Positions 39,001 through 42,000 of a stretch of 64,000 bases of DNA are shown in pieces; position 1 is the first letter of the stretch, and the number at the start of each line of letters is the position of its first letter. The position numbers are program-made. This stretch comes from Spirochaetia bacterium (GTDB lineage: Bacteria; Spirochaetota; Spirochaetia; SZUA-6; Bin103), in NCBI GenBank assembly GCA_965198005.1, contig CBDAOI010000004.1:1568001-1632000 (forward strand), read 5' to 3'.

Positions 39001-42000
39001 GCGGCGATGACATACTCAAATTGGGTTTGTCCTATTTGCCATTCTCTGTTAAGACCTTTGACCCACGGCTGGGTCGCGCCTATCGATGGTAGTTCCTCAC
39101 CCCATACGGACCAGTACCTCTCTATTGCGTACATATTCAGCTCTCTCACCAACGGCAATTGCTCTTCTTCTGTGCTTACCAATCGGCCGGCTTCGTACAT
39201 GGCGTCATAAGCCGGATCGCTCACATTGGGGCGGTTAAAGGAAGAACCAGTCACGTAAGTACTCATCGTTCCGAAAGGCGCTTTCCTAGTGCCCAATACC
39301 GTAGCAATCATGTCATGATCTCTATTTGCAGCGCGAGGACCTAGCTCCGCACCTGTCACTGGCTCAATCTCTAGATCAACGCCAATGTCACGATAGTATG
39401 TAGCGGCTATTAATTCTGCATAGCTCACATCGGCGGCGTCATGCCAGGTCAATGTGGCCTTGAACCTGATGCCGTCGGCCCCGCGCGGATACCCCGCCTC
39501 ATCAAGGAGCTTCTCGGCCCCTGCCGGGTCATACATATAGCCTTTCTTGACCTCTTCGGGCCACTCTTCAAATGGGATGCCAGCCACTGGGACATCGTTG
39601 CCTACCGTTCCCTGAGGTATCCAGTTTCCCCACCCTTTGAAGTAGGTATCGTGAATTGTCTCAAAGTCCAGTGCCATGTTCATTGCCTTGCGCACCCGGA
39701 TGTCATCAAAGGGTGGCCTCTCCGTGTTCATGCTAAAACTATTAAGCGACCGTACCCAATGCTCGGTTATGACGATTTCGGGGTTGGTCCGCTGCAGGCT
39801 CTCCACTTTGTCGATACTGCCGAACATCCTATAGGCATGCAAGCCGGTGTAATCGATCTTACCCGTGCGCAGCGCCGCCAGCTGCGTTGCGTGTTCTGGT
39901 ATAATCAGGCCCCTTAACTCGTCAATATAGGGCAGTCGGTTCCCCGGGTATTTTTCGTCGTCGCTCCAGTAGTTACGATTCTTGGTATAGGTTACAGAGC
40001 TGCCGTCGACATACTCAGTCAGCATAAAGGGCCCAGTGCCGACCACGTTCCTCCAATCCTTCATGTCTCCGTATTCCTCGATTACCTCCCGTGGAACAAT
40101 GATGTGAACTACAGGGTCGATGATAGACCGCAGCGCACGGGGGTCTGGCTGCTTCAGCTTAAAAACAACCGTCCATTTGTCCGTTGCTGTTATCGATTCG
40201 ATCGGTATAGCATCCCACCCATCATACCCGAGGCCGGGGGTAGGTTCGGCTTCGGAGAATTCGCCCATAGCAAGATTGCGTTGAAAGGTATATTCTACAT
40301 CATAGGCAGTCATCTCCCGACCGTTCACCGGTGGCTTGTCATGCCAGTGAACGCCCTTGCGGATGTGGAAGGTATAGGTGAGGCCGTCCTCGGAAATATC
40401 CCAGCTTTCCGCCAGCGCACCTCTTAAGGTAGATAGAGGAGTGGAAAAACCTGAGAAGTCAAATATGTCCCTATCTATTCCCCAGTCGCCGATGCTTAGC
40501 TTCTCTAGAACACCTTGGCTCATTATGTAGAGGACACAGCCGTGGGAATAATACGGGTCAGCAGTCGGACAAAGCCCCTTTTCACTCCTGCCAATGGTTA
40601 ATGTCCCGCCATACTCCGGCGCGGTCACCATCTTGCCGGTGGTGGGGTCGAGCACCATTTCCTTCTCGGCAGCGGCTGCCGGCGCCTCTTCCTCTGCGCC
40701 GGCGGCCCAGAGGCCGGTTGCGGTCATTACGAGGACCAACGCAACCGCGAAGGTCATTCTAATTCTTACAATGTCCATAGTAGCTCCGTATGTAGATTTT
40801 TCGAGAGTATTGCGGAGCGACTTGCGCTCCCTGGCTACTCTCATGCCCGCAACAGCGGGCGCGCCCGCCAACGCGGACGGCCAGTTTGAGTCAAATGGCT
40901 GAAGCGCGCGGCGTGTGACTCACCGGGTTCACCCGGGCTCACGCCGCGCGCGCGTGCGGTTCTTTCAGTATCATCTTCACCTCCTTCTTGGGGCACAGGG
41001 TGCCCTGCGAGATGGCTGACGTAAGATGGGATCCGCGTGCGCGCCCCATCATGCAAACGCCCACCGCTCGGCGGACGTCGGGACCTGCGTCACAACGCCA
41101 CGCGGGGCGGTGGTCGGCCGAGCAACGAATGTGTTTGGCCGGCGACGTGGGCGGTCGGTTCTGTGACGGTGAGTTGGGGGGCGGGGATCCAGGACCGGTG
41201 CAGTCGTAGCCGGCCGCTACCCCGGTGCTGAAGGCGACGGCGTGCGCGGGGGCACGTAGGGGGCGATCAGCCGGAGCGGTTAGTTGTTTCTCGGTTTGAA
41301 AAAGTGGGGGGGGGGTATGATGCACCGGTCGCGTCACAGCGAACCGGTCACTGCGCTGCCTGTCATCGTGACCCTTCATGACCATCCGTCGAACCCCAAG
41401 CGAGGCACGCTAGCATAGGCGCGGCGCGCCGTCAACGACTCGTGGGGGTCACCGAAGGTCACCGCCAACCCGTCACCGCGCTGTCGCCATCCTGGCGCCT
41501 CATGCCATCCTGGCACGTCATCATGGCAGTTCATCACCGATCCGTCGAACCCCAGACGAGGCAAGCTTGCTATGGACGCGACCACCCTGTCAACGACTCG
41601 CACGTCACCGAACATCACCGGCCACCGGTCACTGCGCTGACTGTCGTCATGGCGCGTCATCATCGATCCGTCGAACCCCACCCCAAGCGAGGCAAGCTTG
41701 CTATGGAGGCGACCACCCTGTCAACGACTCGCAGGTGACCGACCGTGACCGCCAGCCGGTTACTGCGCTGACTGTCATCATGGCAGTTCATCACCGTTCC
41801 GTCGAACCCCAGGCGAGGCCAGCTTGCTACGGACGCGGCCACCCTGTCAACGACTCGGACGTCACCGAACATCACCGGCCACCGCGCTGGCGGTCGTCGG
41901 GGCGCATCATCTGCATTCGCCGAACCCCTAACGGTGCACTCTCTTGCGAGCGCGGCCACCCTGTCAACAGCGCCGACCGGCACCTCCCGGGGTGTCACGC

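Follow-up and report, generated by a model that had tools for sequence, protein, structure and literature searches.

Why does a run of ten cytosines stand between the promoter repeats and the leader of an ABC importer operon, and do such runs act as joints at which upstream sequences have been exchanged? The run lies in the window, the 64-kb stretch of DNA analysed here, which belongs to a Spirochaetia genome of 4.89 Mb on four contigs (G000); coordinates are window positions unless prefixed by a contig (C2, C3, C4). It reads G10 on the forward strand at 41306–41315 and C10 on the minus strand, the strand of all features of this operon given below. The left module, L0 (41316–41930; outer limit approximate), consists of promoter-bearing tandem repeats of about 115 bp. 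The putative sigma70-like promoter closest to the tract (41407–41435), assigned by consensus match, has a −35 box TTGACG, a 17-nt spacer and a −10 box TAGCGT, and lies about 90 nt upstream of the C10. A short inverted repeat with ACCGGT arms can be read immediately before the tract (41324–41348). The right module, R0, is an importer leader of 527 nt (40779–41305) with a possible leader peptide of 11 residues (40939–40974), its reading frame preceded by a strong ribosome-binding site; an Rfam search of the window, this leader included, matched no family. The leader is followed by a gene for a family-5 solute-binding protein (SBP_bac_5; 38955–40778; 607 aa) and, in the same operon, two BPD_transp_1 ABC permease genes (36378–38447). 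Of four sequencing runs, three each have one contig with 3 fewer G at 41306, which may come from a paralogue; the runs gave fragmented Logan contigs, none of them covering the whole stretch.

The L0–R0 pairing recurs at two more minus-strand junctions in the window, one upstream of another importer (L0-C10-R0, 30335–30344) and one with an extra GT past its longer run (L0-C28-R0, 22185–22212). On the plus strand, a C12 tract ahead of an SBP_bac_5 gene (56996–57007) has an L0 promoter on its left and an unclassified right flank. Another C12 tract (27803–27814, plus strand) lies at a permease gene start, is followed by a palindromic repeat and has neither promoter nor leader class. Also in the window are an IS66-family transposase gene followed by a DruA (DUF4338) gene (33555–36094, plus strand; about 5–8 genome copies) and a repeated element (42704–47362, minus strand; about 7–8 copies) with an rve/Mu-C transposase, an AAA_22 ATPase, a tyrosine-recombinase domain and three ORFs that matched no Pfam family. 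A leucine-rich-repeat gene (18729–19721, minus strand) separates a binding-protein gene from its permeases, and a single reading frame (50232–51347, minus strand) fuses a truncated permease to a HigB-like toxin-antitoxin domain.

C tracts as joints between promoter modules and importer leaders

G000 holds 95 C/G runs of at least 10 and one A/T run of that length. Of its 145 SBP_bac_5 gene starts, 77 have a C run of at least 8 at 250–1000 nt upstream, compared with 1.3% of random 750-nt windows, and of the 95 C≥10 tracts, 70 have such a start within 1.2 kb. In these 70, the tract stands between a putative sigma70-type promoter module and the leader of a family-5 ABC importer operon. Most left modules carry, by consensus, a TTGAC box, 17–18 nt and a TA..T box 80–150 nt before the tract, often in tandem. 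For the 145 genes, a right-side class could be assigned to 77 junctions, to the left of which stand an IS110 right end (22), L0 (18), other modules (33) or unclassified sequence (4). A genome-wide survey's note had reported that one right-flank class pairs with many left classes, and R0 bears this out: its 41 junctions carry L0 (15), an IS110 right end (10), L3 (4), L5 (3), L6 (3) and, once each, L2a, L4 and L9, with 3 unclassified. The focal tract has the usual L0–R0 pair and is not a between-class hybrid.

Flank similarity was compared across 158 distinct C≥8 tracts, obtained from 160 runs by merging one pair and removing one overlapping duplicate. A similar left flank was accompanied by a similar right flank in 199 of 566 cases (0.35), and the converse held in 199 of 883 (0.23). 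Control positions gave 259/269 and 259/330 at −120 nt, and 184/254 and 184/241 at +130 nt; nearer controls were high in one direction only (0.99/0.61 at −60 nt, 0.37/0.95 at +70 nt), so that the linkage the note described away from the tract stands at the outer positions and only one way at the inner ones. Excluding IS110 ends and IS-internal tracts (120 left) gave 141/268 (0.53) and 141/504 (0.28) at the tract, against controls of 0.89/0.70 at −120 nt and 0.66/0.82 at +130 nt. Of 738 self-alignments (at least 90% identity over at least 150 bp) extending to a family tract, 622 stop at it, compared with 0.05–0.31 at nine control offsets, although run-length differences alone may break some of them. 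Clustering of 159 tracts by flank yielded a cross-table with many off-diagonal left/right pairs. C tracts are recombination breakpoints between promoter modules and importer leaders.

The claim that they are joints thus holds, and the breakpoints do lie where upstream modules would be swapped, but the accompanying claim that flanks are combined almost freely was overstated. Doubly similar pairs numbered 196, where shuffling of the pairings gave 98±15 (101 tracts; maximum 561); with IS parts excluded, the figures were 138 and 67±14 (63 tracts). Pairing across tracts is twice as linked as free assortment would make it. Within the L0–R0 class, similarity across the tract was uncorrelated (Mantel rho 0.05–0.13, p 0.15–0.33) and same-side windows were correlated (rho 0.36–0.60, p≤0.006), in a small sample of 15 tracts, the focal one included, whose left repeats may convert among themselves.

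Tract length was alike at right-end, cognate and other junctions (medians 12, 13.5 and 11), with no visible difference. In 13 G000 tracts with several left classes (e.g. C3:685385, C2:80533), 3–8 AC units directly follow the C run. Head-to-head joins, in which a C run meets an inverted promoter end or C9 stands against G10, occur at the tract at C4:2041507 and in a relative, G001 (L130/L131).

The resident IS110 and its predicted bridge RNA

The IS110 recombinase of G000 combines an N-terminal DEDD domain (PF01548) with a C-terminal PF02371 domain. There are 19 recombinase matches in this genome, compared with 0–5 in 40 relatives, and four full-length open frames, with intact ones at C4:1325321 and C4:165885; a PF02371 profile search gave 16 matches in G000 and none within the window. 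All nine copies of the left-end RNA start with at least five C followed by TGTAC. The 29 right-end motif hits comprise 2 unrelated sequences and 27 genuine ends, each of which finishes with a fixed 9-mer and then a C run (at least C4 within 6 nt in 27/27). With 27 right ends and 9 left ends, the ends are one-sided. TGTA, which the note had seen inside C runs, is indeed the commonest 4-mer between runs (12 of 43 where one run is at least 7, intact left ends counted).

In a consensus of nine aligned copies from six genomes, the left end is predicted to fold into a 5′ stem and two looped stems, the bridge-RNA layout known for IS621 from PMC11208160. The first predicted loop has a C run (C4–C6 left guide) on one side and a G7 right guide opposite, with CC as core; the second would carry the 9-mer of the right end together with a complement to the first bases of the left end. 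In all 14 tabulated elements, which include five different sequences, the left donor guide and the right-end 9-mer agree at 9/9 bases (for G000, the rows are based on the right end at C4:277375), and the right donor guide is complementary to the left-end start. Across five lineages the right target guide fits its site in 6–7 of 7 bases and the left target guide in 5–8 of 8. The right target guide is G7 in G000, in the relative G012 and in an Acidobacteriota MAG; Bradyrhizobium and Terriglobia have other 7-mers, and their target guides are non-homopolymeric, each matching its own site. In G012, the right end and its guide have both changed to another 9-mer. The AC that follows the G7 guide pairs with the donor's final GT, in conformity with the handshake rule of PMC11208158.

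Because the guides match poly-C and the element's own ends, and co-vary with their sites in relatives, it is very likely that the predicted bridge RNA of this IS110 specifies poly-C as its target. The focal tract fits such a target, with a C-rich left target, a CC core and a C5 right target. The Acidobacteriota element (JANODS010000432.1; L189) is 45% identical and has the same C-run and G7 guides and C5 and C8 flanks; its sequence suggests that poly-C targeting occurs in a second lineage. A promoter across the circle junction would consist of a TTGAC box, 17 nt and a weak −10-like hexamer if the core is CC, but most G000 right ends carry a weaker −35; one right-end/left-end junction is present in the chromosome, at C4:277375–277360. 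In its sequence-testable features, the element appears to be a member of the IS110 group. The bridge recombinases IS621 and CazIS110-1 share with it the DEDD and Tnp domains, a left-end bridge RNA (predicted here) with target and donor loops, a 2-nt core, a right-end −35 box (putative here), handshake bases and a repeated intergenic target; here, unlike there, the target is a homopolymer between promoter and leader rather than part of a REP element, and the core is CC, not CT. With a homopolymer as target, the register can slip and every tract is equivalent.

IS110 elements in G000 are expanded (4–11 kb), with nested introns and insertion sequences, and the right end bears promoter modules, in an analysis that covered 25 of 28 ends. 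By their size, nested inserts, tandem repeats and one-sided ends they resemble the expanded IS110 elements, with half-match recombination, of two papers (10.64898/2026.08.14.744561; 10.64898/2026.08.31.748434), in which resistance cargo and off-target insertion are described; here the cargo is promoter modules and promoters are exchanged across a large host gene family. The nearest natural parallel is ISPpu10, an IS110 element in multicopy intergenic targets that is linked to large rearrangements (10.64898/2026.03.19.712850). A stem-loop on the 5′ side of the target is a further likeness; unlike poly-C, the target itself is a unique conserved sequence. In G000 a hairpin requirement is unsupported: hairpins before the tract exceed those in shuffled sequences (p=0.002), but their excess over other C6–7 runs is not significant (p=0.10).

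IS110 copies also carry group II introns. An RT-encoding intron (RF02005; 35 genome matches) lies downstream of the recombinase gene, for example in C4:165601–176800, with up to three insertions per IS110 element in either orientation. An ORF-less intron of about 815 nt (RF02003) sits in the tracts' G strand at C2:11068–12699 (L196; two in tandem), C4:277423 and C4:1718131; three other copies follow GGGGGA. From its sequence, the ORF-less intron appears to be a second RNA-guided element using the same C runs. Its C-rich EBS1-like loop, its position at those three loci and the many RT-bearing copies would suit an explanation in which the intron reverse transcriptase makes the joints, by retrohoming into the G strand or by template switching, and adds the odd AC and G letters. 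We consider this very improbable, since the swapped left modules include promoters and upstream DNA that a transcript would not carry, and few tracts are touched (1 of 77 classified junctions).

Related genomes and the record of exchange

In the relatives, 30 of 34 tracts in G012, 30 of 37 in G010 and 30 of 33 in G009 were covered. Runs of C10–C41 stand at the 5′ ends of paralogous lipoprotein genes in G012 (L092–L121), G009 (L230–L259) and G010 (L200–L229); relative to an upstream start, some are in frame and others are not. In simple-sequence contingency loci, such as those of Neisseria, poly-C/G runs of variable length at the 5′ ends of surface or lipoprotein genes bring about phase variation. 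The lipoprotein-gene runs look like such phase-variable loci; the likeness is clear in G009, G010 and G012, where several lipoprotein genes have the run in the corresponding position. The importer runs of G000 differ in that they also act as a joint and lie in neither a reading frame nor a promoter spacer: at about 90 nt downstream of the promoter and 240–700 nt before the start codon, they allow no simple frameshift or spacer switch. L6 was considered as a right-end module truncated at a non-C site; this was dropped because L3/L6-type modules end at G010 tracts that precede lipoprotein genes.

Which came first, the tracts or IS110? G010 has 37 runs of C≥10 and no match to the G000-type recombinase, its single IS110 being unrelated. 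In G012, for three of five compact IS110 insertions there are paralogues that lack the element between the same two flanks; for a fourth, the empty counterpart is a C17 orthologue in G009. Since G010 has runs without this IS110 clade and four of the G012 insertions have empty counterparts, the C tracts are host features, which IS110 very likely targets. Over 578 bp, the left flank of a C6-TGTA-C16 site in G009 shares 85% identity with a filled site in G012, and the right flanks are alike only briefly.

The presence of tracts where this clade was not found would also suit an explanation by host recombination alone, in which C runs and paralogous flanks supply microhomology for deletions, duplications and gene conversion, and IS110 just lands in the tracts and accounts only for junctions that still show its ends. 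In G010, moreover, a promoter has been lost, with the endpoint 7 bp from a tract, and lipoprotein flanks are mixed; one clean hybrid occurs in G009, where a single partial copy of IS110 is present. Yet the longer runs of G012 and G010 mostly keep their cognate flanks: 11 of 11 right-similar pairs in G012 (24 IS-free tracts), which has five intact compact copies and C10–C38 runs, and 28 of 39 in G010. MutS and MutL-C are both encoded in long open frames in G000, and on this ground loss of mismatch repair was also rejected as the source of the long runs. We regard host recombination alone as unlikely to be the general account. The G012 pairing limits the role of the element too: with five copies present and flanks still paired, IS110 alone is not sufficient for reassortment. 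In G001, G003 and G005, which have 1–2 recombinase matches, 12 of 13 pattern hits still pair R0 with L0, compared with 15 of 41 in G000; the one exception among the 13 carries TGTA.

An assembly artefact, through homopolymer errors or mis-joins at repeats, might be suspected where run lengths range from 5 to 28 as judged from contigs alone. It is scarcely credible: junctions of identical type (L0-C-R0, L3-C-left end, L2a-C-tip-C-R0) recur in relatives whose genomes were assembled separately, flanks in G012 and G010 stay paired though the runs are longer, and the guides predict the insertion site.

Most of the recent exchanges carry the mark of the element. Among 55 pairs of near-identical left flanks, 33 have unlike right flanks, and IS110 right ends are involved in 31 of these; among 10 pairs of near-identical right flanks the left differs in 3, in 2 of them by a right end. 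Recent swaps mostly involve IS110 right ends. The note had placed joints also at tracts that have no right end, and this holds for the IS-free sample above but not for most of the recent swaps. A series of junctions links the two kinds: L2a-C-51-bp right-end tip-C-R0 (in G001 and at C4:190686 in G000) versus L2a-C7-R0 at C4:581037 in G000. The IS-free hybrid at C4:581037 thus appears to have an intermediate that still bears a 51-bp IS tip, although the loss of that tip itself resembles a C-to-C deletion. Two G001 importers have closest matches in G000 whose L4-type promoter has given way, at the tract, to a right end in one case and to L3 in the other. Against host recombination alone also stand the frequency of TGTA between runs and, as a single case, a G001 tract whose joined sequence lacks a C run in G000.

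Traces of the element are scarce elsewhere. IS110 sequence was found within 3 kb upstream in only 2 of the 55 junctions without a right end, leaving 53 with none nearby, and TGTA remnants were not enriched in non-cognate R0 junctions (3/15 vs 1/15, p=0.6). Because of these two results, the G012 pairing and the G010 and G009 cases, the host-only route keeps real weight for the IS-free hybrids, most of which may nonetheless have arisen through IS110.

A proposed route to promoter exchange

In shufflons and invertible promoters (R64 Rci, Bacteroides Mpi, Piv/MooV), the repeats are recognised by a protein, and the inversions are local and reversible. The tracts resemble them in that recombination re-pairs regulatory or variable modules with genes. 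They differ in that the sites are dispersed over all four contigs, the predicted guide is an RNA and no IS110 gene lies within the window; clustered inverted sites beside a dedicated recombinase were not found in G000.

Poly-C-guided IS110 probably explains the promoter swaps at C runs among dozens of importer genes. As a full account, we think it reasonably probable that host C tracts and a poly-C-guided IS110, with half-matched or homologous recombination, led to promoter replacement among importer operons. The tracts would be host simple-sequence runs between the promoter module and the leader of paralogous genes. The first three steps are read from sequence: the predicted bridge RNA has guides that match poly-C and the element's own ends; IS110 sits in tracts, parting promoter from leader; and the G000 right end has been enlarged by promoter modules and stands before 22 of the 77 classified importer leaders. 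Half-matched junctions, made of a right end and a C run or of a C run and a left end, would then undergo recombination with other tracts; alternatively, homologous exchange between IS copies at separate places would bring together the left and right sides of different tracts. IS pieces may later be deleted between the C runs on both sides, or insertions may abort, which would account for hybrids free of IS sequence, for TGTA remnants and for runs of variable length; overall, promoters would be replaced among importer operons. The deletion step is probably host-made whether IS110 or the host made the joints.

Half-match recombination (10.64898/2026.08.31.748434), expanded elements with one-sided boundaries (10.64898/2026.08.14.744561) and transfer of the top strand only (10.1101/2025.10.25.684509) have been described for IS110 elements and offer plausible routes. 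Against the IS110 route, IS621 is reported not to recombine one target with another in vitro (PMC11208158), and excision is reported to be able to bring the former flanks together again (PMC13626964); an excision without scar would give back the initial pair. The left target guide matches in 5–8 of 8 bases only, and the AC repeats following 13 tracts are not accounted for.

A stronger version holds that the host keeps IS110 as a genome-wide RNA-guided promoter shuffler, with C runs maintained as universal joints and about 10 promoter modules distributed over about 145 operons, in selected and ongoing variation of nutrient uptake; we find this quite doubtful. The IS110 group itself is known. 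What appears to be new here is the targeting of poly-C, with promoter reshuffling as its consequence; literature searches returned no bridge RNA with a poly-C or homopolymer target, though the IS110 tables in supplements, which lay outside the search, could list one.

If the IS110 route is correct, this would be a natural bridge recombinase programmed against a homopolymer, in two bacterial lineages, with the host's variable simple-sequence tracts serving as its landing sites. It would make two matters testable: whether flanks can pass from one target to another in a bridge system, an exchange reportedly absent in IS621, and how run length is altered when the target register slips. G000 would then hold a natural, genome-scale record of half-match recombination over time and of promoter rewiring across a large transporter family.
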